Positions 14,996-28,478 of a stretch of 64,000 nucleotides of DNA are shown here, in pieces (the stretch's first letter is position 1; the number at the start of each line of letters is the position of its first letter). The notes under the pieces were generated by a model. That model made no database searches, was not told the origin of the DNA, and saw nothing but the letters and a program-made list of their open reading frames with translations. The stretch lies in NCBI RefSeq assembly GCF_965641715.1, contig NZ_OZ282453.1; one strand, written 5' to 3'. The position numbers and the translations under genes are program-made. This stretch comes from Escherichia coli. Lineage in GTDB: Bacteria > Pseudomonadota > Gammaproteobacteria > Enterobacterales > Enterobacteriaceae.

Positions 14996-15253
14996 GTTAT
15001 TTACCTTACTTTACGCGCGCGTATCTCTGGCAACATCACTGCAGGATAGCGGTCAATTTACCTCCTCAAACGCAACGCAAACCTAGAACGGCTTCGGCCT
15101 ATGATTAACAAATTACTCTATGGATTTTGGTTTGCAGGAAGGCAGCAAGTGAGTGAATCCCCGGGAGCTTACAACAGTAAGTGTCAGAGGTGAACGAACG
15201 CAGCTGCCGCACCTGTAAGCCAAAAGACGACGAGTAAAATGCCAGGTTTTACT

Positions 15254-17404
15254 ATGGATACGAAAAAACTATTCAAGCACATACCCTGGGTGATTCTCGG
15301 AATCATCGGTGCATTCTGCCTCGCGGTAGTTGCATTACGTCGGGGGGAGCACGTCAGCGCCCTGTGGATCGTGGTCGCCTCTGTGTCGGTGTATCTGGTG
15401 GCGTATCGCTACTACAGTCTGTACATCGCCCAGAAGGTGATGAAACTCGACCCCACACGCGCGACGCCTGCGGTTATTAACAACGACGGTCTGAACTACG
15501 TTCCGACCAACCGTTACGTGTTGTTTGGTCACCACTTCGCCGCTATCGCCGGTGCTGGTCCGCTGGTTGGTCCGGTGCTCGCCGCGCAGATGGGCTACCT
15601 GCCTGGCACGCTGTGGCTGCTGGCGGGGGTAGTGCTGGCCGGTGCGGTACAGGACTTTATGGTGCTGTTTATCTCCTCTCGCCGTAACGGCGCATCTCTC
15701 GGTGAGATGATCAAAGAAGAGATGGGGCCAGTACCGGGGACTATCGCGCTGTTTGGCTGTTTTTTAATCATGATCATCATCCTCGCCGTTCTGGCGCTGA
15801 TTGTGGTTAAAGCCCTGGCCGAAAGTCCGTGGGGTGTCTTCACCGTTTGCTCAACCGTACCAATTGCGCTGTTTATGGGTATCTACATGCGCTTTATCCG
15901 TCCGGGGCGTGTGGGTGAAGTCTCTGTCATTGGTATCGTGCTGCTGGTTGCCTCTATCTACTTCGGTGGCGTGATTGCTCACGATCCGTACTGGGGTCCG
16001 GCACTGACCTTTAAAGACACCACCATTACCTTCGCGCTGATTGGCTATGCGTTTGTTTCCGCACTGCTGCCGGTGTGGCTGATCCTCGCACCGCGCGATT
16101 ATCTGGCAACCTTCCTGAAAATCGGCGTTATCGTCGGCCTGGCGCTGGGTATCGTGGTGCTGAACCCGGAACTGAAAATGCCTGCGATGACCCAGTACAT
16201 TGACGGTACTGGCCCGCTGTGGAAAGGCGCTCTGTTCCCGTTCCTGTTCATCACCATCGCCTGTGGTGCGGTATCTGGCTTCCACGCGCTGATCTCTTCC
16301 GGTACGACGCCGAAACTGCTGGCTAACGAAACCGACGCGCGTTTCATTGGCTACGGCGCAATGCTGATGGAGTCCTTCGTGGCGATTATGGCGCTGGTTG
16401 CTGCGTCCATCATCGAACCGGGTCTTTACTTCGCGATGAATACCCCGCCTGCGGGCCTTGGCATCACCATGCCTAACCTGCATGAAATGGGTGGCGAGAA
16501 CGCGCCGATCATCATGGCGCAGCTGAAAGACGTTACCGCACACGCGGCGGCGACCGTCAGCTCCTGGGGCTTCGTGATTTCGCCAGAGCAGATCCTGCAA
16601 ACCGCGAAAGACATTGGTGAGCCTTCTGTCCTGAACCGTGCAGGTGGTGCGCCGACGCTGGCGGTAGGTATCGCTCATGTGTTCCACAAAGTGCTGCCGA
16701 TGGCTGACATGGGCTTCTGGTATCACTTCGGTATTCTGTTCGAAGCCCTGTTCATCCTGACCGCGCTGGATGCGGGTACCCGTTCTGGCCGCTTTATGCT
16801 GCAAGACCTGCTGGGTAACTTCATCCCGTTCCTGAAAAAAACCGACTCTCTGGTTGCCGGTATCATCGGTACTGCGGGCTGTGTGGGTCTGTGGGGCTAC
16901 CTGCTGTATCAGGGCGTGGTCGATCCGCTGGGCGGCGTTAAGAGCCTGTGGCCGCTGTTCGGTATCTCCAACCAGATGCTGGCAGCCGTAGCGCTGGTAC
17001 TGGGCACCGTTGTGCTGATTAAGATGAAGCGCACCCAATACATCTGGGTAACTGTTGTTCCGGCTGTATGGCTGCTTATCTGCACCACCTGGGCGCTGGG
17101 TCTGAAACTGTTCAGTACCAACCCGCAGATGGAAGGCTTCTTCTACATGGCAAGCCAGTACAAAGAGAAGATTGCTAACGGTACTGACCTGACGGCGCAG
17201 CAGATTGCCAACATGAACCACATCGTTGTGAACAACTACACCAACGCAGGCCTGAGTATTCTGTTCCTGATTGTGGTGTACAGCATCATCTTCTACGGTT
17301 TCAAAACCTGGCTTGCGGTGCGTAACAGCGACAAACGTACTGACAAAGAAACACCGTACGTTCCAATCCCGGAAGGCGGCGTGAAGATCTCTTCGCACCA
17401 CTAA
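15254..17404 (+). CDS. btsT: Pyruvate/H+ symporter, CstA family
   Basis: ORF 15239..17404; likely start MDTKKLFKHIPW (716 aa); polytopic CstA-type transporter; synteny with yjiX-yjiA. Confidence 0.9.
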   Translation: MDTKKLFKHIPWVILGIIGAFCLAVVALRRGEHVSALWIVVASVSVYLVAYRYYSLYIAQKVMKLDPTRATPAVINNDGLNYVPTNRYVLFGHHFAAIAGAGPLVGPVLAAQMGYLPGTLWLLAGVVLAGAVQDFMVLFISSRRNGASLGEMIKEEMGPVPGTIALFGCFLIMIIILAVLALIVVKALAESPWGVFTVCSTVPIALFMGIYMRFIRPGRVGEVSVIGIVLLVASIYFGGVIAHDPYWGPALTFKDTTITFALIGYAFVSALLPVWLILAPRDYLATFLKIGVIVGLALGIVVLNPELKMPAMTQYIDGTGPLWKGALFPFLFITIACGAVSGFHALISSGTTPKLLANETDARFIGYGAMLMESFVAIMALVAASIIEPGLYFAMNTPPAGLGITMPNLHEMGGENAPIIMAQLKDVTAHAAATVSSWGFVISPEQILQTAKDIGEPSVLNRAGGAPTLAVGIAHVFHKVLPMADMGFWYHFGILFEALFILTALDAGTRSGRFMLQDLLGNFIPFLKKTDSLVAGIIGTAGCVGLWGYLLYQGVVDPLGGVKSLWPLFGISNQMLAAVALVLGTVVLIKMKRTQYIWVTVVPAVWLLICTTWALGLKLFSTNPQMEGFFYMASQYKEKIANGTDLTAQQIANMNHIVVNNYTNAGLSILFLIVVYSIIFYGFKTWLAVRNSDKRTDKETPYVPIPEGGVKISSHH

Positions 17405-17667: not shown

Positions 17668-18624
17668 ATGAACCCGATTGCAGTTACCCTACTCACCGGT
17701 TTTTTAGGCGCGGGAAAAACCACCCTGCTGCGCCATATTCTTAACGAACAACACGGCTACAAGATTGCCGTGATTGAAAACGAATTCGGCGAAGTCTCCG
17801 TTGATGATCAACTGATTGGCGACCGCGCCACGCAGATCAAAACGCTGACCAACGGCTGCATCTGCTGTTCGCGCTCCAACGAGCTGGAGAACGCGCTACT
17901 CGACCTGCTGGATAATCTCGACAAGGGCAATATTCAGTTCGATCGTCTGGTCATTGAATGCACCGGCATGGCCGATCCTGGCCCGATTATTCAGACCTTT
18001 TTCTCCCATGAGATTTTATGCCAGCGCTACCTGCTGGACGGCGTGATTGCGCTGGTGGATGCGGTACATGCCGATGAGCAGATGAACCAGTTCACCATCG
18101 CCCAGTCCCAGGTTGGCTACGCCGACCGTATTCTGCTGACTAAAACCGACGTCGCAGGCGAAGCAGAAATACTGCGTGAACGTCTGGCACGCATCAACGC
18201 CCGTGCACCGGTCTACACCGTCACCCACGGCGACATCGACCTGGGCCTGCTGTTCAACACTAACGGTTTTATGCTGGAAGAAAACGTCGTCAGCACCAAA
18301 CCGCGTTTCCACTTTATCGCGGATAAACAAAACGATATTTCGTCGATTGTGGTGGAACTGGATTACCCGGTAGATATCAGCGAAGTTTCCCGCGTGATGG
18401 AAAACCTGCTGCTGGAATCGGCGGATAAACTGCTGCGTTACAAAGGGATGCTGTGGATTGACGGCGAACCTAATCGCCTGCTGTTCCAGGGCGTCCAGCG
18501 CCTCTACAGCGCCGACTGGGACCGCCCATGGGGCGATGAAAAACCGCATAGCACGATGGTGTTTATCGGGATTCAGTTGCCGGAGGAAGAGATTCGGGCG
18601 GCGTTTGCGGGGTTGAGGAAGTAA
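17668..18624 (+). CDS. yjiA: CobW/COG0523-family P-loop GTPase (metal chaperone-like)
   Basis: Start MNPIAVTLLTGFLGAGKTTL (Walker A), CICCS metal-binding motif; 318 aa. Confidence 0.9.
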   Translation: MNPIAVTLLTGFLGAGKTTLLRHILNEQHGYKIAVIENEFGEVSVDDQLIGDRATQIKTLTNGCICCSRSNELENALLDLLDNLDKGNIQFDRLVIECTGMADPGPIIQTFFSHEILCQRYLLDGVIALVDAVHADEQMNQFTIAQSQVGYADRILLTKTDVAGEAEILRERLARINARAPVYTVTHGDIDLGLLFNTNGFMLEENVVSTKPRFHFIADKQNDISSIVVELDYPVDISEVSRVMENLLLESADKLLRYKGMLWIDGEPNRLLFQGVQRLYSADWDRPWGDEKPHSTMVFIGIQLPEEEIRAAFAGLRK

Positions 18625-18710
18625 TCGTGAAAGGTTGAGTGTAAAGCAGCTCAATGCCCCATTTAGCAGTGAGGGGGGAAACAGAACGACGTGCTCCCCT
18701 CCGCTAAGTT

Positions 18711-18902
18711 TTATTGCGCGTGAATACCTGGATCTGGCAAAAAATTGCCGCGTTTGGCGTCAGACCATGCTTCGCTACCAGAAGCAGGAATGTCGCTGTA
18801 ATCAATGTCTTCGTCGGATTTATTAACCAAAGCCATGAGTTCAGCTTCTTGCTGCACATCAAGTGTGTAGAGTGTGCCCCGTTTATGTTTAACCATGCTC
18901 AT
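18711..18902 (-). CDS. Small acidic ORF of uncertain status, possibly a truncated antitoxin-like fragment
   Basis: 63-aa ORF 39 nt downstream of the membrane-protein gene on the same strand; carries an EDIDYSDIP motif that resembles, from memory, the N-terminal segment of BrnA/DUF4415-type antitoxins; no RHH domain follows. Confidence 0.35.
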   Translation of the reverse strand: MSMVKHKRGTLYTLDVQQEAELMALVNKSDEDIDYSDIPASGSEAWSDAKRGNFLPDPGIHAQ

Positions 18903-18941
18903 TTATGACCAGAACCTTTACGATTTAATTATAAAGATGAC

Positions 18942-19910
18942 TTATTTCAGCCATCCAGGCACGTTATATTCTGAGACATTCTCAATGGAATATGCATCTC
19001 TCCTGTCAGAACCTTTCTTACACTTCAACTCATTGAACCCCCATTTACCCTCTCTATTGGAATAAAATACAGTATATTTATCAGTATTAAACCCGAAATA
19101 TCTTTCATCCGGACGTGAAATATTCAACTCTCCACATTTAACCTGACTGCGCCATTCAAAATCTATGGTGCTTTTTAAAACGTAGTACGAAATATTCTCT
19201 ACATTTTTTGAAGCAAAAACTACTAAAATAGTAGATACTATAAATGCTCCGGCAAGTATAAATAACCTATACACACTTAATTTAGTCCCCAGAGTTAAAA
19301 AAGCAAAATAGATAATAAGTTGCATCAACATGAAGAAAATCAACAAAAAAGCCATCCCTTTCCAGAAATACTCAACCCATGGTGATAGTGTGATATTTAG
19401 ATTACTCAAACTTAAAAATAAACTGGAAGAAAAACTACTTGAGAATAAATATATAATTGGTATGACAGCTAAAGTCATAGACCTAATAATCATTAATTTT
19501 TTATTATTTTTAAATTCCAACTCTAATATAATAAAAACACCTCCCAGAAAAACAAATACTGAAAAAGCACTAAAAACGTATACAGAGACACTGACTGGAA
19601 AAATATTAATTGAAAGCACAAAAAACAAAAATATAAACCATGCAATAAGTGAACACCAGGCAGCACAACTATTCAAACTGTTTTTATTACTGAACTTGAC
19701 AAAATACCCCATATATTCTGTAATGCGATTTTCTTCCACTAATGCATAAAGAAGAATACCAACAAAGCACAGAGATAAAATAATATCTTTCCACAGATAT
19801 TTATAAGGGAGAAGTATAAAACCAAGGAGTAGATAAATTAGCAGAATGACATCTAATGCCTTAGTACAAAAATATTGTTTCACTCCTTGCAAGAACCGAA
19901 CATTCTCCAT
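18942..19910 (-). CDS. Uncharacterised polytopic membrane protein (about 7 TM helices plus ~90-aa C-terminal soluble domain)
   Basis: ORF 18942..19943; ATG at 19910 preceded by GGAGAAGGA SD; very AT-rich; occupies the slot between yjiA and hsdR where K-12 carries mrr. Confidence 0.7.
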   Translation of the reverse strand: MENVRFLQGVKQYFCTKALDVILLIYLLLGFILLPYKYLWKDIILSLCFVGILLYALVEENRITEYMGYFVKFSNKNSLNSCAAWCSLIAWFIFLFFVLSINIFPVSVSVYVFSAFSVFVFLGGVFIILELEFKNNKKLMIIRSMTLAVIPIIYLFSSSFSSSLFLSLSNLNITLSPWVEYFWKGMAFLLIFFMLMQLIIYFAFLTLGTKLSVYRLFILAGAFIVSTILVVFASKNVENISYYVLKSTIDFEWRSQVKCGELNISRPDERYFGFNTDKYTVFYSNREGKWGFNELKCKKGSDRRDAYSIENVSEYNVPGWLK

Positions 19911-20050
19911 ATGAATCCTTCTCCAGCTATTGATGAAACTCAAGAATACCTTTAAAACAGTGACTTAACGCTGATAATACTCTTTGAACAGATGAATTCA
20001 TCTATTTTTCTGTGTAGAATTTGCGCATCGCATTTAGATGAGAACACCCC

Positions 20051-22483
20051 ATGGCGGAACTGAACCTAAGTAACCTGACGGAAGCAGACATCATTACCAA
20101 ATGCGTTATGCCAGCCATTCTCAATGCAGGCTGGGACAACACAACGCAAATCAGACAGGAGGTCAAACTCCGGGACGGTAAAGTCATCGTACGTGGTAAA
20201 GTTGCGGCACGCAGAACGGTAAAATCTGCTGACATCGTGCTGTACCACAAGCCAGGCATTCCCTTAGCCGTGATTGAAGCAAAAGCCAACAAACATGAAA
20301 TTGGCAAAGGGATGCAACAGGGCATTGAATATGCGCGCCTGCTGGACGTTCCTTTTGTTTTTGCCACCAATGGTGATGGCTTTATCTTCCGCGATGCCAC
20401 CGCAGCTGAAGGTGAATGCCTTGAAAAGCAAATAACGCTGGATGACTTCCCCTCCCCCGCTGAACTCTGGCAAAAATTCTGCCTCTGGAAAGGATACACA
20501 CAAGCTCAGCTTCCGGTGATTACTCAGGACTATTACGACGATGGTAGCGGTAAATCGCCTCGTTATTATCAACTTCAGGCAATCAACAAAACCATTGAAG
20601 CCGTCTCCAACGGGCAAAACCGCGTTCTGCTGGTCATGGCGACCGGAACAGGGAAAACCTATACCGCATTCCAGATCATCTGGCGCCTGTGGAAATCAAA
20701 AAATAAAAAACGCATTCTGTTCCTTGCCGATCGCAACATTCTGGTCGACCAAACCAAAAATAATGATTTCCAGCCATTTGGTACGGCAATGACCAAAGTC
20801 AGCGGACGCACCATTGATCCCGCTTATGAAATTCACCTCGCGCTCTATCAGGCTATAACTGGCCCGGAGGAAGACCAAAAAGCGTTTAAACAAGTCGCAC
20901 CAGATTTCTTCGATCTGATCGTGATCGACGAATGCCATCGCGGCAGCGCATCCGAAGACAGCGCCTGGCGAGAGATCCTTGATTATTTCAGTTCCGCCAC
21001 CCAAATTGGCTTAACCGCCACGCCAAAAGAGACGCATGAAGTCTCCAGCACGGATTACTTCGGCGATCCGGTTTACGTCTACTCGCTAAAAGAAGGGATC
21101 GAAGACGGCTTCCTCGCCCCTTATAAAGTTGTCCGTGTTGATATTGATGTTGATCTGCAAGGCTGGCGCCCAACCAAAGGGCAAACTGACTTAAACGGCG
21201 AAGTGATCGACGATCGTATCTATAACCAGAAAGATTTCGATCGCACGATGGTAATCGACGAACGCACAGAACTGGTTGCCAGAACCATTACCGACTACCT
21301 CAAGCGCACCAATCCGATGGATAAAACCATCGTCTTCTGTAACGACATCGATCATGCAGAACGTATGCGCCGCGCCCTGGTTAATCTCAACCCGGAGCAG
21401 GTGAAAAAGAACGACAAATACGTCATGAAAATCACCGGCGATGATGAAATTGGCAAAGCTCAGTTGGATAACTTCATCAACCCGAAAAAACCGTACCCGG
21501 TTATCGCGACCACTTCAGAGCTGATGACCACCGGTGTGGATGCTAAAACCTGCAAACTGGTAGTACTGGACCAGAACATCCAGTCGATGACCAAATTCAA
21601 GCAGATTATCGGTCGTGGTACACGCATCGACGAACGTTACGGCAAACTCTGGTTTACCATCCTCGACTTTAAAAAAGCCACCGAACTGTTTGCCGATGAG
21701 CGTTTCGATGGCATTCCCGAAAAAGTCATGGATACCACACCAGAGGATATCGCCGATCCAGACTCTGATTTTGAAGAGAAACTCGAAGAAATCAGCGAAC
21801 ATGTCGACGAACAGGTAACAGGCGTTGATGAACCGCCTGCGCCACCATACCAGGTTAAAGATACCGATGATGTCGGCCCACTTCCGGAAGAAGACGAGAA
21901 GAAAATCCGCAAGTTTCACGTCAACGGTGTAGCGGTGGGCGTTATTGCCCAGCGTGTTCAGTATTACGACGCCGACGGTAAACTGGTTACCGAATCCTTT
22001 AAAGATTACACTCGCAAAACACTGCTCAAAGAATATGCCTCGCTGGATGACTTTACCCGCAAGTGGCAGGACGCCGATCGCAAAGAAGCGATCATTCACG
22101 AGCTGGAGCAACAGGGGATCATCTGGGAAGTACTGGCAGAAGAAGTCGGTAAAGATCTCGACCCATTCGACATGCTTTGCCACGTAGTGTATGGTCAGCC
22201 GCCGTTAACCCGCAAAGAGCGCGCCGAGAACGTGCGCAAGCGGAACTACTTCACAAAATACTCTGAAGCAGCGCAAGCCGTGCTCGATAATCTGCTGGAT
22301 AAATACGCCGATGCGGGCGTACAGGAGATCGAAAGTATTCAGGTGCTGAAACTTAAGCCATTCGACAGCATGGGCACCTTACCGGAGATTATTAAAACCG
22401 GATTTGGCGACCGTAACGGGTATAATCAGGCGCTCAGCGAGCTGGAAAACGAAATCTACCAATTACCGCCCCGCTCTGCTTAA
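20051..22483 (+). CDS. hsdR: Type I restriction enzyme R subunit
   Basis: 810 aa; N-terminal PD-(D/E)xK-like motif (D...IEAK), SF2 helicase motif I (MATGTGKT) and motif II (DECHR). Confidence 0.9.
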
Positions 22484-24019: not shown

Positions 24020-25776
24020 TGAGTGTGGAAAAGCTGATCGTTGATCATATGGAAACCTGGACCTCGGCGTTGCAAACCCGTTCCACCGCCGGGCGCGGCA
24101 GCTCCGGTAAGATTGATTTGTATGGTATTAAGAAATTGCGTGAGCTGATTCTGGAACTGGCGGTGCGCGGTAAACTGGTGCCGCAGGATCCGCATGATGA
24201 ACCGGCGTCGGAGCTGCTGAAGCGTAATGAAGAACGGAAAAAAGAATTAGCGCGCAATAATGGTATGAAAACCACAGCAAGCACTAATATCCATGGAAAT
24301 GAATATTATATCGATACCCCCGAAAAGTGGTCATGGATAAGACTTGGTAATTTAGCTAAATTCATCGATTACCGAGGAAAAACACCACATAAAAAAGAAA
24401 ATGGTATAAGGCTTATAACAGCAAAAAATATCAGAAAGGGCTATATTGATCTCAATCCAGAAGAGTTCATATCTGAAGAAGATTACATATCATGGATGAC
24501 AAGAGGCTTTCCTAAATGTGGTGATATTTTATTCACAACTGAAGCACCACTGGGGAATGCAGCGATTATTGATTTAGACGGAAAGTTCGCTCTTGCTCAA
24601 CGTTCTATCTGTTTTCAATGGCATACTCCAGAGATAAGCCCTTTTATGCTTATTCAAATCCTGGCGATCCCCTTCCAGTCACAACTAAGTGACAAATCTA
24701 CAGGCATGACCGCAACAGGAATAAAAGCGTCTAAGTTAAAAGAGATCCCTGTTATTTTACCACCTTACCAAGAACAAATACGTATTGTATCCAAAGTACA
24801 GGAGTTCATGTCCCTATGTGACCAACTGGAACAGCAATCCCTGACCAGTCTGGACGCACATCAGCAACTGGTTGAAACCCTGTTGGAAACACTTACAGAC
24901 AGCCAAAACGCCGAGGAACTGGCTGAAAACTGGGCGCGTATTAGCGAGCATTTCGACACCCTATTTACCACTGAAGCCAGCGTGGATGCGTTAAAACAGA
25001 CCATTCTGCAACTGGCCGTAATGGGTAAACTTGTGCCGCAGGATCCGAATGACGAACCAGCCTCTGAACTGCTCAAACGAATTGCGCAGGAAAAAGCTCA
25101 ACTGGTGAAAGAAGGGAAAATAAAAAAACAAAAACCGTTGCCGCCAATTAGCGATGAGGAAAAGCCGTTTGAACTGCCGGAAGGTTGGGAGTGGTGTCGA
25201 TTGGGTTCTATTTATAATTTTTTAAATGGATATGCCTTTAAAAGTGAGTGGTTTACCTCTGTCGGTTTACGTTTATTGCGGAATGCTAACATTGCTCATG
25301 GAGTTACCAATTGGAAAGATGTTGTACATATACCAAATGACATGATATCCGATTTTGAAAATTATATTTTGTCAGAAAATGATATTGTTATTTCATTAGA
25401 CAGACCAATTATTAATACCGGGTTAAAATATGCTATCATTAGCAAATCAGATTTACCCTGTTTACTGCTCCAACGAGTAGCAAAATTTAAAAATTATGCA
25501 AACACTGTGTCTAACTCCTTCTTGACAATATGGTTGCAATCTTATTTCTTCATAAATTCAATTGATCCTGGAAGAAGTAATGGAGTTCCACATATATCTA
25601 CGAAACAGTTAGAGATGACACTATTTCCTCTTCTACCGCAAAGTGAACAAGATCGTATTATTTCAAAAACGGATGAATTAATACAAACCTGTAATAAACT
25701 GAAATATATTATCAAAACCGCCAAACAAACCCAACTGCACCTTGCAGACGCACTGACTGACGCAGCGATAAACTAA
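24019..25776 (+). CDS. hsdS: Type I restriction-modification specificity subunit with two target-recognition domains
   Basis: 585 aa; start overlaps hsdM stop; two AT-rich variable regions flanked by a duplicated conserved segment (LAV(R/M)GKLVPQDP(H/N)DEPASELLKR) near 24130-24230 and 25000-25085. Confidence 0.9.
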   Translation: MSVEKLIVDHMETWTSALQTRSTAGRGSSGKIDLYGIKKLRELILELAVRGKLVPQDPHDEPASELLKRNEERKKELARNNGMKTTASTNIHGNEYYIDTPEKWSWIRLGNLAKFIDYRGKTPHKKENGIRLITAKNIRKGYIDLNPEEFISEEDYISWMTRGFPKCGDILFTTEAPLGNAAIIDLDGKFALAQRSICFQWHTPEISPFMLIQILAIPFQSQLSDKSTGMTATGIKASKLKEIPVILPPYQEQIRIVSKVQEFMSLCDQLEQQSLTSLDAHQQLVETLLETLTDSQNAEELAENWARISEHFDTLFTTEASVDALKQTILQLAVMGKLVPQDPNDEPASELLKRIAQEKAQLVKEGKIKKQKPLPPISDEEKPFELPEGWEWCRLGSIYNFLNGYAFKSEWFTSVGLRLLRNANIAHGVTNWKDVVHIPNDMISDFENYILSENDIVISLDRPIINTGLKYAIISKSDLPCLLLQRVAKFKNYANTVSNSFLTIWLQSYFFINSIDPGRSNGVPHISTKQLEMTLFPLLPQSEQDRIISKTDELIQTCNKLKYIIKTAKQTQLHLADALTDAAIN

Positions 25777-25800
25777 TTCCCTCGCCCTCAAAAAACCAAT

Positions 25801-25925: not shown

Positions 25926-26002
25926 AGCGCGGTGCGGATGTGCGCCAACACACCCGCACCGCTAATCACAATCCCTATTTCTAAGGAATAGTAATCATGA
26001 CT
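25926..26002 (-). ncRNA. symR: Antisense sRNA SymR, placed by homology expectation only
   Basis: SymR is known to be encoded antisense to the symE 5' end; an imperfect 14-bp hairpin (GCGGTGCGGATGTG ... CACACCCGCACCGC) lies at 25929-25962; exact ends not determinable from sequence. Confidence 0.35.
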
Positions 26003-26338
26003 GACACGCATTCTATTGCACAACCGTTCGAAGCAGAAGTCTCCCCGGCAAATAACCGTCAATTAACCGTGAGTTATGCGAGCCGCTACCCGGATTACAG
26101 CCGTATTCCCGCCATCACCCTGAAAGGTCAGTGGCTGGAAGCCGCCGGTTTTGCCACTGGCACGGCGGTAGATGTCAAAGTGATGGAAGGCTGTATTGTC
26201 CTCACCGCCCAACCCGCCGCCGCCGAAGAGAGCGAACTGATGCAGTCACTACGCCAGGTGTGCAAACTGTCGGCGCGTAAACAAAAGCAGGTGCGGGAAT
26301 TTATTGGGGTGATTGCGGGTAAACAGAAAGTCGCCTGA
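25997..26338 (+). CDS. symE: SOS-induced toxin SymE (type I TA toxin, AbrB-fold)
   Basis: 113-aa [37 protein letters not shown]... recognised as SymE; downstream of hsdS as in K-12. Confidence 0.9.
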
Positions 26339-26384: not shown

Positions 26385-28478
26385 TTATACCAAGGCGCTC
26401 TCCATCTGTTTTTCAAATGCCTGACGAATTAATCCCATAATGTAAGGAAGTTGTGCGAGGTCACTGAAACCAATTTCCACATCACCATTACCCCAGCGCC
26501 CAACATTTGTCACATCTTTGGCAATACCTTTCGGATCGACCAGTTCATGAAACTGCATATTAAGCGACAATCGCAGTCGGCTTTTTTGCGGCACAACATC
26601 AACAAAATTCGTTTCCGCTTTAAACGCAATATATAGCTTCAATACTTCCTGCGTGATCCCTGCGTCCAGGCGCATAACTTCATCGCGAAGATGATCGAAT
26701 AACACCCGGCTATGCGAACCATCAGCAAGAAAAGGATAATCACTCAGGCTGTAACTGGTTTTGTTTTCAGGCTGTCCCCGATAAACAGCTAAAACCTCTT
26801 CAGGAAGAGAAGGCGCTTGCCAGACCTGAACCGCGAGATCGGCCAGACGATCGGCTCGGGCGTGAATGGCGGCTTCATCCCATTTTTCGCACTGTCCAAG
26901 ACCGATATTCAAATAGAGCGGGCTATGCTTAAAGCCGTCTTCAATATCGCGTTTTTCTGCGAAAGGTCTGTCACTGTAACGGGAGTTATAGCGCGTTAAA
27001 GTGAGATTCCCCAACGTATGCAACAGTTCTTTATGAATACGCTGCCAGTCGCTTCCCAGCTCTTCGCGCCATTTAGCCGACAAATTTTCGTTCTGCGGCA
27101 TAATATGTTCAATCGTAAACTCTTCCACGCGCTCTCTGCGTTTATCGTTTTCCAGTCGTCGTAACCAGTAGCTGCGACTACGGAAGTTATAGAGATCGCG
27201 AACTTTTAATTCCCGTTTAAATTCATCATCGTTGGGGAAACGACGATATGAAGGTAGATTCAAAAAATGTACCTGAATACTTTCCAGATAATTTTCTTTA
27301 TTAATAACTTTATAAAAAGTGGCAAATGTCTTGTTCAAAGAATTTGTCGGAATTGCACATACTGCACGGCGGAAAACATAAGATTCAATTAAACGAATTA
27401 TGCTCAGGAAATCTTCGTGAGACAAAACGCCATTTTTATAGTCATGATAAAGCGCCAGTAAGAAAGGATACACCACATCGACCTTTAACTCGCGCAAATC
27501 CTGAAAAGCCGTAGCAAGCAATTTGTCACTTTCTTTTCCCAATGCCATTGCACAGTAATACTCCGCGTAGATATGAATATCTTCAACCAGCCGATCTACG
27601 CCTTTTTCAGCAACACTCTGGCTGCGGGCATGGAGTTTAAATGCCTCATAGACTTCATCTGTCCGAGGGATCTCCCCCGTTTTTACCGTCAGATAATGAC
27701 GCATAAAACTGTCAAAATATTCGCTGTAACCTTGCTGACCAAAGGCGACTTCCATTGGACGCCAGTGATCTTCATACAACCGGGTTTGATGCTCTGGTTC
27801 GAGGCCCATCAGAATAAAATTGCGCACCAGATCGGCCTGACTTAACGCCTTACCGGTGGAGTTCATACTTTCAAAAATCAGTTGCGGATTATCCTGACCA
27901 CGATTAAGCGCCACATCGACAATTAATAACTTTGCTAACCCACGACATAAGGGGATCAAGTCATCACCGAGTTTGGCAATTTGTTCATCAAAGAAAGTAA
28001 AGTTTTCCATTATTCGATGGGAATAGTTTTCTGGCATTGGTCTTTGTTTTATTAACGCCAGTAAACTGTCTTTATCAGTCTCGGTCAGCAGTAATTTAAA
28101 ACCTTTCTCGCCGGACTCATAAGGATTGAGCAAATAATAATTACGCAATTTCATTGCCGAAAAGCCATCAAAAACTTCGTCTTCGCCAAGATGGCGCGAT
28201 AAAGCCTCAATCAGCAACATTGCGGTCGTCAGCCGCTGCTGACCATCAATGACCAGCAACGGAGAAATACCAGAAACCTGATACAATCCCTGCTCTATAT
28301 AAACAACCGAACCGATAAAATGCGCTGATATATCGTCACGCTTTCCTGCACGAATGATGTCGTCCCAAAGTTGCCGACATTGTTGCCCGGTCCATGAATA
28401 AGTCCGTTGATAAATGGGAATAACAAACTGCTGCGAACGTTTTAAAAAATCGAGTAGGCGAGCTTCTGTAGCTTTCAT
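26385..28478 (-). CDS. Single-chain DUF262/DUF1524 protein, GmrSD-family type IV restriction endonuclease candidate
   Basis: 697 aa; N-terminal DGQQR motif (DUF262 / ParB-like NTPase); C-terminal His-Me finger-like EHIMPQ motif (DUF1524); sits where K-12 carries yjiT-yjiV-mcrCB. Confidence 0.8.
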   Translation of the reverse strand: MKATEARLLDFLKRSQQFVIPIYQRTYSWTGQQCRQLWDDIIRAGKRDDISAHFIGSVVYIEQGLYQVSGISPLLVIDGQQRLTTAMLLIEALSRHLGEDEVFDGFSAMKLRNYYLLNPYESGEKGFKLLLTETDKDSLLALIKQRPMPENYSHRIMENFTFFDEQIAKLGDDLIPLCRGLAKLLIVDVALNRGQDNPQLIFESMNSTGKALSQADLVRNFILMGLEPEHQTRLYEDHWRPMEVAFGQQGYSEYFDSFMRHYLTVKTGEIPRTDEVYEAFKLHARSQSVAEKGVDRLVEDIHIYAEYYCAMALGKESDKLLATAFQDLRELKVDVVYPFLLALYHDYKNGVLSHEDFLSIIRLIESYVFRRAVCAIPTNSLNKTFATFYKVINKENYLESIQVHFLNLPSYRRFPNDDEFKRELKVRDLYNFRSRSYWLRRLENDKRRERVEEFTIEHIMPQNENLSAKWREELGSDWQRIHKELLHTLGNLTLTRYNSRYSDRPFAEKRDIEDGFKHSPLYLNIGLGQCEKWDEAAIHARADRLADLAVQVWQAPSLPEEVLAVYRGQPENKTSYSLSDYPFLADGSHSRVLFDHLRDEVMRLDAGITQEVLKLYIAFKAETNFVDVVPQKSRLRLSLNMQFHELVDPKGIAKDVTNVGRWGNGDVEIGFSDLAQLPYIMGLIRQAFEKQMESALV

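Follow-up and report, generated by a model that had tools for sequence, protein, structure and literature searches.

The interval between yjiA and hsdR in Escherichia coli raises two questions: what an orphan gene is doing in a slot that elsewhere holds a restriction gene, and whether the short reading frame beside it is its partner. We examined this interval in a 64,000-nucleotide stretch of contig NZ_OZ282453.1 (assembly GCF_965641715.1), here called the window. In K-12 MG1655, mrr fills the slot next to hsdR in the same orientation as the orphan gene, and the interval belongs to the immigration control region (ICR), as the initial annotation of the window had correctly noted. That annotation had described two open reading frames (ORFs) on the minus strand, one for a protein of about 322 amino acids with seven transmembrane (TM) helices, hereafter the 7TM protein, and one for an acidic product of 63 amino acids, and it had proposed that the pair might be a membrane-anchored abortive-infection (Abi) or phage-exclusion module, or else a degraded toxin-antitoxin (TA) remnant. 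Our analysis separates the two genes. The short frame is the scar of a brnT-brnA operon, and the long one encodes a member of a tiny, orphan family of inner-membrane proteins restricted to the Enterobacterales. We hold the identity and the anatomy of both with high confidence. The composite reading, in which the brnA scar adjoins an orphan gene that is carried by islands and acts in defence or exclusion, is tentative and falls somewhat short of an even chance.

The brnA scar and the cassette junction

The 63-aa ORF occupies positions 18711-18902 of the minus strand, stop codon included, and begins 39 nt beyond the stop codon of the 7TM gene (18942-18944). Its product contains 11 D+E against 6 K+R and carries the motif EDIDYSDIP, all as first described. 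Alignment to BrnA shows that its first ~54 residues are 76-85% identical to the 100-aa BrnA antitoxin of enterobacteria (PF14384), and that it diverges thereafter; the tblastn search gives 78% amino-acid identity over residues 1-54. At the DNA level, window positions 18740-18902 are 80% identical to brnA codons 1-54 of another E. coli locus (L002), in which an intact, overlapping brnT-brnA pair adjoins yjiA in the same convergent orientation as in the window and is followed by an Mrr-like gene and a different type I system. The ORF, here called brnA', thus consists of brnA codons 1-54 followed by nine unrelated codons, and these nine, together with the stop codon, come from a filler of 114 nt (18626-18739, minus strand) that extends from the yjiA stop codon to the end of the brnA homology. 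As judged by blastn and MAFFT against locus L002, the filler is dissimilar to the 3' half of brnA that stands there in brnTA-bearing strains. It also holds a G/C-rich inverted repeat (GAGGGG...CCCCTC) at about 18680-18712 of the minus strand, just 3' of the brnA' stop codon.

Structural data support this assignment. The 63-aa product matches chain B of PDB entry 7VD7 (an "antitoxin" of 44 aa) over residues 15-55 with E=3e-11. Chain A of the same entry is a BrnT-family toxin that matches the BrnT of locus L002 (E=1.5e-52) and, more distantly, the Brucella BrnT (3U97); a literature search found no paper for 7VD7. In this entry the toxin was crystallised together with BrnA residues 14-57, to which the segment kept by the 63-aa ORF corresponds. 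The PF14384 domain spans residues 37-93 of intact BrnA, of which the remnant keeps only the first ~18 positions (residues 55-93 are missing), and this explains why the product has no Pfam match even at E<=10; it has no NCBIfam match either. In other complete genomes, PGAP labels the 63-aa ORF "antitoxin" (WP_000063145.1) and the 7TM gene "hypothetical protein". No brnT-like sequence was found by tblastn anywhere in the window, and DNA alignment indicates that only ~25 nt of the brnT 3' end (ATCGTAAAG..., 18903-18930, minus strand) survive, directly 5' of the brnA' ATG. A 2025 EcoSal review names brnAT among the toxin-antitoxin systems of the ICR (PMC12707154).

In comparison with BrnT-BrnA type II systems (PF04365/PF14384; PDB 7VD7, 3U97), brnA' shares homology with BrnA residues 1-54 as well as the yjiA-proximal position and the orientation of intact brnA in other E. 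coli, but it is without most of PF14384, is without brnT and ends in nine unrelated codons. Because most of the PF14384 region is lost and brnT is missing, the 63-aa ORF is a remnant of the operon and not a working TA system. The suggestion of a degraded TA remnant therefore holds for this ORF and not for the 7TM gene, and the statement that neither ORF belongs to a recognised family has to be amended for the same ORF, which is of the BrnA family. Since brnA' keeps the toxin-contacting segment, it is conceivable that its product could still neutralise an incoming BrnT in trans, as an orphan "anti-addiction" antitoxin.

The distribution of the two genes argues for independent origins. In E. coli, brnA' and the 7TM gene travel together because they are part of a single haplotype, and the single exception examined arose secondarily, by an IS1-mediated deletion. 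In Salmonella, the orthologue of the 7TM gene lies in the yjiA/hsdR slot without brnA, the distant homologues from Pectobacterium, Enterobacter, Lonsdalea and metagenomes, including all those in islands at leuX, have no brnA-like neighbour, and strains with intact brnTA are without the 7TM gene. The adjacency of brnA' and the 7TM gene is thus a junction left by a cassette replacement at the yjiA edge of the ICR. A two-gene module, with the 7TM and acidic proteins as toxin and antitoxin or as effector and regulator, has next to no probability left: the ORFs share a strand, are separated by only 39 nt and co-occur in E. coli haplotypes, but the small one is a shortened brnA with brnT as its natural partner, each gene is found elsewhere without the other, and the terminator-like hairpin that overlaps the 7TM stop codon (18935-18956, minus strand) is a weak signal, not above chance.

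The extent of the replacement can be seen in comparison with O157:H7 (locus L018), which has yjiA and hsdR as in the window and a DUF262/HNH (GmrSD-like) gene between them. According to blastn, the full variable segment relative to the O157:H7 strains spans 18634-20039, and homology returns only at 20040, which is 11 nt before the hsdR ATG, so that the region upstream of hsdR differs completely between the two haplotypes. A cassette swap with this boundary would replace the promoter region of hsdR and could change the expression of the restriction gene between strains. Salmonella presents a different picture: the order yjiA, 7TM gene and type IB hsdR is the same as in the window, and the divergent intergenic region is conserved from 19937. 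On this evidence, the 7TM gene and hsdR form an old divergent unit that predates the split of the E. coli and Salmonella cassettes. The intergenic region measures 140 nt (19911-20050) and contains the Shine-Dalgarno (SD) sequence of the 7TM gene as well as a promoter-like site for hsdR on the plus strand (19951-19978). Promoter and terminator scans of the interval remained at chance level, and Rfam gave no match on either strand.

An orphan family of inner-membrane proteins

The 7TM gene is located on the minus strand at 18942-19910, with its TAA at 18944-18942. The ORF opens at a TTG (18942-19943, 333 aa), and from the ATG at 19910, which is also the start chosen by PGAP, it encodes 322 aa; the SD sequence GGAGAAGGA lies at 19924-19916, 5 nt ahead of this ATG. 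The gene has a GC content of 31% compared to 50% for the window, with a minimum of 28% over 19200-19800. The start codon, SD sequence and AT-richness thus agree with the initial annotation.

Hydropathy and the helices of the AF2 model place the seven TM segments at residues of about 19-35, 43-58, 82-101, 106-129, 144-168, 186-207 and 216-234. Residues 1-234 (19209-19910) would accordingly comprise a cytoplasmic N-terminus and the seven helices, as also supported by the conservation pattern, and residues 235-322 (18945-19208) form an 88-aa C-terminal domain, recognised from the AF2 domain model and its conservation. The seven segments and the soluble C-terminal domain of ~90 aa had been anticipated. 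The odd loops, including the N-terminus, carry 12 K+R and the even loops three, from which we predict an N-in, C-out topology that places the domain in the periplasm, not in the cytoplasm. The full-length AF2 model is of modest confidence (pLDDT 66), and the C-terminal domain modelled alone from 23 sequences reaches a pLDDT of 90.6 and a pTM of 0.82; in this model, a single helix leads into an antiparallel beta structure of six strands.

Ten residues are invariant in 20 members of the family with identities down to 23%: M1, F116, F165, P177, E252, W253, C259, Y271, F292 and C297. The YFGF, KY and WGF motifs (YFGFNTDKY and KWGF in the C-terminal domain), E294 and W320 are near-invariant. Of the 25 invariant or near-invariant positions, 16 are located in the C-terminal domain, one (P177) in periplasmic loop 5, and five in the flanking TM5 and TM6. 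The TM part contains the conserved Ser-rich TM5, the periplasmic loop at residues 169-185 (SNxxIxxSPWxExxWK) and TM6. The conserved positions are thus predicted to lie mostly on the periplasmic side, in the C-terminal domain and the hairpin formed by TM5, loop 5 and TM6, and the invariant cysteine pair (C259, C297) would fit a periplasmic disulfide. The cytoplasmic loops are poorly conserved and take several substitutions between the E. coli alleles, and the predicted protein contains no cytoplasmic domain.

Among 5.8e9 proteins, the search for relatives retrieved 29 homologues, and a deep HMM search covering 1.84e9 representatives returned 38 clusters. These clusters contain only the family itself, as fragments or as proteins of ~310-330 aa, and all share one domain architecture. 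Six loci, all in Enterobacterales, were found in ~100,000 species genomes, and the genera with members are Escherichia, Salmonella, Enterobacter, Klebsiella, Pantoea, Pectobacterium, Lonsdalea, Photorhabdus, Providencia and Proteus; one Salmonella cluster has >1,000 member sequences. One contig labelled "MAG: Bacillota bacterium" (L026, JAEWTL010000091.1) encodes a protein that is 99% identical to the 7TM protein of the window over residues 1-322, and it is almost certainly a mis-binned Escherichia contig.

No family of housekeeping membrane proteins emerged from searches of Pfam, NCBIfam, PDB profiles and predicted folds. When 20 members were searched singly against Pfam, only DUF1422 and DUF7378 appeared, each in one member and with E>0.01. 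Profiles built from PDB sequences gave nothing significant for the 7TM protein, and its full-length model retrieved only uncharacterised membrane proteins or family members from AFDB50. In PHROGs, the sole match, phrog_944 ("membrane protein", E=0.04), was judged to be noise. The conclusion that neither ORF is Mrr-like was borne out, since Pfam and NCBIfam identified no Mrr_cat (PD-QxK) or DUF262/HNH domain in either of them and tblastn with the K-12 Mrr found no match in the window. Papers on the ICR and on EcoAO83I make no mention of the 7TM ORF.

The gene is real and selectively maintained, not a chance ORF: all orthologues examined, with identities down to 23%, have kept the sense frame unbroken, and the whole-gene dN/dS between E. 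coli alleles is 0.35. A Lys-rich ORF of 139 aa on the opposite strand (19330-19749, plus) was rejected as a gene since it is not conserved in the orthologues, among which the length of the longest antisense ORF ranges between 31 and 139 aa (31-95 aa outside the window); it is a by-product of AT-rich sequence. Two alleles occur in E. coli, with about 99% and about 94% nucleotide identity. Their differences cluster in a sharply bounded patch of 500 bp (19184-19683), which spans TM3-TM7 and in which the nucleotide divergence is 8-13%, compared with ~1% in the flanks. On either side, the products of brnA' and hsdR are identical between the allele representatives (L001 and L019). Positive selection on the patch was considered and rejected: dS is raised to 0.22 versus 0.04 in the flanks and dN/dS is 0.38, values that indicate purifying selection on an intragenic recombination mosaic.

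Between E. coli and Salmonella, the 7TM protein is 42% identical over its whole length, with 35% in the TM part and 65% in the C-terminal domain. The corresponding values for the neighbouring proteins are 97% for BtsT, 94% for YjiX, 91% for YjiA, 91% for HsdM and 82% for HsdR. In the leuX islands, the integrases are 90-96% identical and the adjoining 7TM members 70-74%. Genes engaged in genetic conflict typically diverge this fast while keeping their position, which is suggestive and not proof. All members of the family have a GC content of 31-35% in hosts of 47-52%.

Genomic contexts in the ICR and at leuX

Among 5,426 complete E. coli genomes, 970 carry an EcoAI-type hsdR and 443 (about 8%) the 7TM gene, all of the latter within the 970; 409 copies keep at least 80% of the gene. 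IS1 and IS5 insertions and partial deletions of the gene were observed in other E. coli genomes (H13-H15, H93-H95, L032), and one IS1-mediated deletion removes the segment from brnA' through the far side of the ICR. Two further members are associated with type I genes: a metagenomic homologue has Mrr-like, SymE and type I hsd genes as neighbours, and in Proteus a truncated copy is found close to type I hsdR and hsdS.

A second setting was found in five lineages, namely Pectobacterium, two genomes of the Enterobacter group, Lonsdalea and one metagenomic lineage. Here, tRNA-Leu(CAA), the leuX gene, is followed by a P4-type integrase gene and, after 49-52 nt, by a member of the 7TM family. These leuX-island homologues are a sister subfamily. 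In Pectobacterium, the 7TM gene is succeeded by a HigBA-like pair, a P4-alpha-like primase gene and variable genes of defence type (TIR, OLD-like). No attR repeat of at least 14 nt was detected within the fetched flanks of the leuX islands. In the metagenomic lineage (L010:7433-9948; L011:7555-9948), the island apparently consists only of the tRNA-Leu(CAA), the P4-type integrase and the 7TM gene, ~2.5 kb in all, before core genes resume. A sister contig keeps the pair of integrase and 7TM genes, has other cargo upstream (RloB/AAA_21, resolvase) and no tRNA gene; the differences suggest tandem accretion or decay of the island.

In other members, one copy lies beside transfer genes of an integrative and conjugative element, and the lone "plasmid" match of the family is a doubtful one, a non-mobilisable record of 373 kb. 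Three further context look-ups fell on contigs too short to inform, and in a fourth the context was uninformative.

The ICR and the leuX island, the latter bounded by lptG, have been listed as defence hotspots 36 and 37, respectively (PMC12707154), and the integrase-adjacent locus of P4-like satellites is an experimentally validated hotspot for anti-phage genes (Rousset et al. 2022, PMC9122126). The leuX subfamily resembles the cargo of these satellites in being the first gene after a P4-type integrase, but the leuX elements have a P4-alpha-like primase with no psu seen and are not shown to be P4 satellites, and the 7TM protein matches none of the validated P4 hotspot systems in PADLOC. The 7TM protein thus does associate with defence and mobile islands, and the gene is horizontally moving cargo in slots that otherwise hold restriction enzymes or defence genes.

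The genes that flank the interval in the window are, on the brnA' side, btsT (15239-17404), yjiX and yjiA (ending at 18624), all on the plus strand. On the other side, hsdR (20051-22483, plus strand) encodes an 810-aa protein of the EcoAI/FtnUII family of type IB (NCBIfam NF046051, 1192 bits) and is followed by hsdM, hsdS and symE (25997-26338). Two AT-rich dips of 31-39% GC inside hsdS (24200-24800 and 25000-25800) are presumably its two variable target-recognition domains. Located 3' of symE is an intact gene for a 697-aa GmrSD-like (DUF262) type IV restriction protein (26385-28478, minus strand), which PADLOC classifies as Orf5, HEC-06 or mREase_IV. In strain 19SZHZ869Rt (L001:16776-18806), the DUF262/GmrSD-like gene is split or partial, hsdM is frameshifted and hsdS is split, and the ICR content is thus decaying in some strains.

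Possible functions of the 7TM protein

We estimate that a role of the 7TM protein in defence or exclusion is a real possibility, although somewhat less than an even one, and an abortive-infection or exclusion function as first proposed is still a hypothesis. In the mechanism that we favour, the protein would act alone at the envelope. At the inner membrane, some part of the incoming element would be bound by the conserved periplasmic face of the protein, which comprises the C-terminal domain and the TM5-loop-TM6 hairpin, and DNA would be kept from entering. Candidate targets would be the ejection or tape-measure apparatus of a phage, or a conjugative channel. The result would be a barrier similar to superinfection exclusion, placed upstream of the cytoplasmic restriction enzymes that are encoded alongside. 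Such an entry block is favoured because the conserved surface is predicted to be periplasmic, no cytoplasmic domain is present and no partner is conserved. Taken as the specific function of the protein, it is nevertheless unlikely to be right. The broader proposal is that the protein founds a single-gene, periplasm-facing and fast-evolving Enterobacterales family for defence or exclusion that blocks phage or conjugative DNA entry at the envelope, and that has spread into both of the busiest defence hotspots of enterobacteria, in the ICR as the occupant of the Mrr slot by the type IB hsdR and at leuX as the cargo gene that directly follows the integrase; we consider this proposal doubtful as a whole.

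The closest parallels in general design and in the proposed mode of action may be the inner-membrane proteins of phage superinfection exclusion, such as T4 Imm, P22 SieA and HK97 gp15, which have one to four TM helices. These are small, lone inner-membrane proteins encoded by mobile DNA, and their functional surface looks into the periplasm, which the DNA and ejection proteins of an incoming phage have to cross; a comparable layout is predicted for the 7TM protein. The 7TM protein differs in its seven helices and beta domain, in having no sequence or fold similarity to anything in PDB, AFDB or PHROGs, and in occurring in no sequenced phage. EcoKMrr and the GmrSD-like (DUF262/HNH) type IV enzymes occupy exactly the same yjiA-hsdR slot, in the case of K-12 mrr also in the same orientation, but they are cytoplasmic nucleases, whereas the 7TM protein is an integral membrane protein without a nuclease domain. 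A further likeness is to the "R-linked" genes embedded in type I restriction-modification (R-M) loci, for example PrrC in EcoprrI, in that the copy in the window is physically linked to such a type I cassette.

Several observations weigh against a defence or exclusion role. The 7TM protein has no Pfam or NCBIfam family and no solved or predicted fold relative outside its own family. No homology to any known defence protein was found in PADLOC-DB v2.0.0, where the window proteins have no match at E<=10 and eight divergent members none at E<=1, a search limited to libraries no newer than 2023. Unlike classical superinfection-exclusion genes, a homologue is present in none of 50,697 phage records. 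The gene is dispensable, since it is missing from 527 of the 970 E. coli genomes with an EcoAI-type hsdR and some copies are IS-disrupted or truncated. A gene of 31% GC may also be silenced in the laboratory by H-NS. Moreover, some homologues lie beside metabolic or regulatory genes and not beside defence genes, and both the topology and the disulfide are predictions only.

Four other explanations were considered for the 7TM protein, and the evidence weighs against each of them. The one that survives best is a non-defence function in the envelope. In that case the islands would encode an envelope enzyme, a transporter or a factor that modifies the cell surface, its substrate would be periplasmic or lipid-linked, and it would provide a gain in fitness, or one of the lysogenic-conversion type, rather than immunity. 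The conserved polar and acidic residues facing the periplasm and the Ser-rich TM5 would suit such an activity, and there is a marginal profile match (E=0.034) to the luminal MIR domain of protein O-mannosyltransferase. The ICR also carries cargo unrelated to defence, such as aldehyde dehydrogenase and transporters (PMC12707154). The E. asburiae homologue adjoins an aldehyde dehydrogenase gene, and the L021 copy has a two-component system and MFS transporters as neighbours, as well as gtrA-like and glycosyltransferase genes at a distance of about 6 kb. However, no homology to an enzyme or transporter family was found, and the fixed position by hsdR or the integrase together with the fast divergence is more typical of conflict genes, so that we regard this explanation as improbable.

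The defence-island context would be compatible with an abortive-infection effector that permeabilises or depolarises the inner membrane once infection is sensed, so that the cell dies before phage release. Yet the contexts of the 7TM gene reveal no conserved partner or sensor gene, the predicted protein has no cytoplasmic domain, and its cytoplasmic loops are the least conserved part, with the conserved surface on the periplasmic side. These features argue against a classical sensor-triggered effector, which we consider distinctly improbable.

It is more improbable again that the gene is a decaying hitch-hiker without current function, kept through linkage to the type IB hsd cassette or the integrase. 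Its absence from over half of the genomes with an EcoAI-type hsdR, the IS1 and IS5 insertions, the truncations and the many fragmentary copies could be read in this way, as could the low GC content, which suggests silencing. This is difficult to reconcile with an intact ORF of constant length (~310-330 aa) across genera down to 23% identity, with dN/dS values of 0.35-0.38 and with the strong conservation of the C-terminal motifs.

An accessory factor of the type IB system, tethering the EcoAI-type HsdR to the membrane or regulating it and expressed from a shared divergent promoter region, would agree with the arrangement and intergenic region conserved between E. coli and Salmonella and with the other homologues near type I hsd genes, but it has a very slim chance of being correct, given that 527 of the 970 E. 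coli have hsdR without the 7TM gene and with a different hsdR promoter region, that the leuX subfamily has no hsd genes nearby, and that the conserved face is predicted to be periplasmic and HsdR acts in the cytoplasm.

For the ICR, the interval provides a concrete case of a cassette swap, with junctions inside brnA and 11 nt before the hsdR start, such that the swap leaves a TA scar behind and replaces the hsdR promoter region. The brnA scar in itself is ordinary. The 7TM gene represents a genuinely uncharacterised family. It takes precisely the place of a restriction enzyme within an archetypal defence island, but has no annotation, domain or fold relative, and its association with defence is suggestive but circumstantial. 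Should the protein be an envelope barrier, the island, which has so far been described in terms of nucleases, would gain a layer that acts at the membrane, in the form of a simple system of one gene. Should the gene have no part in defence, it would call for caution in inferring function from position in defence islands.

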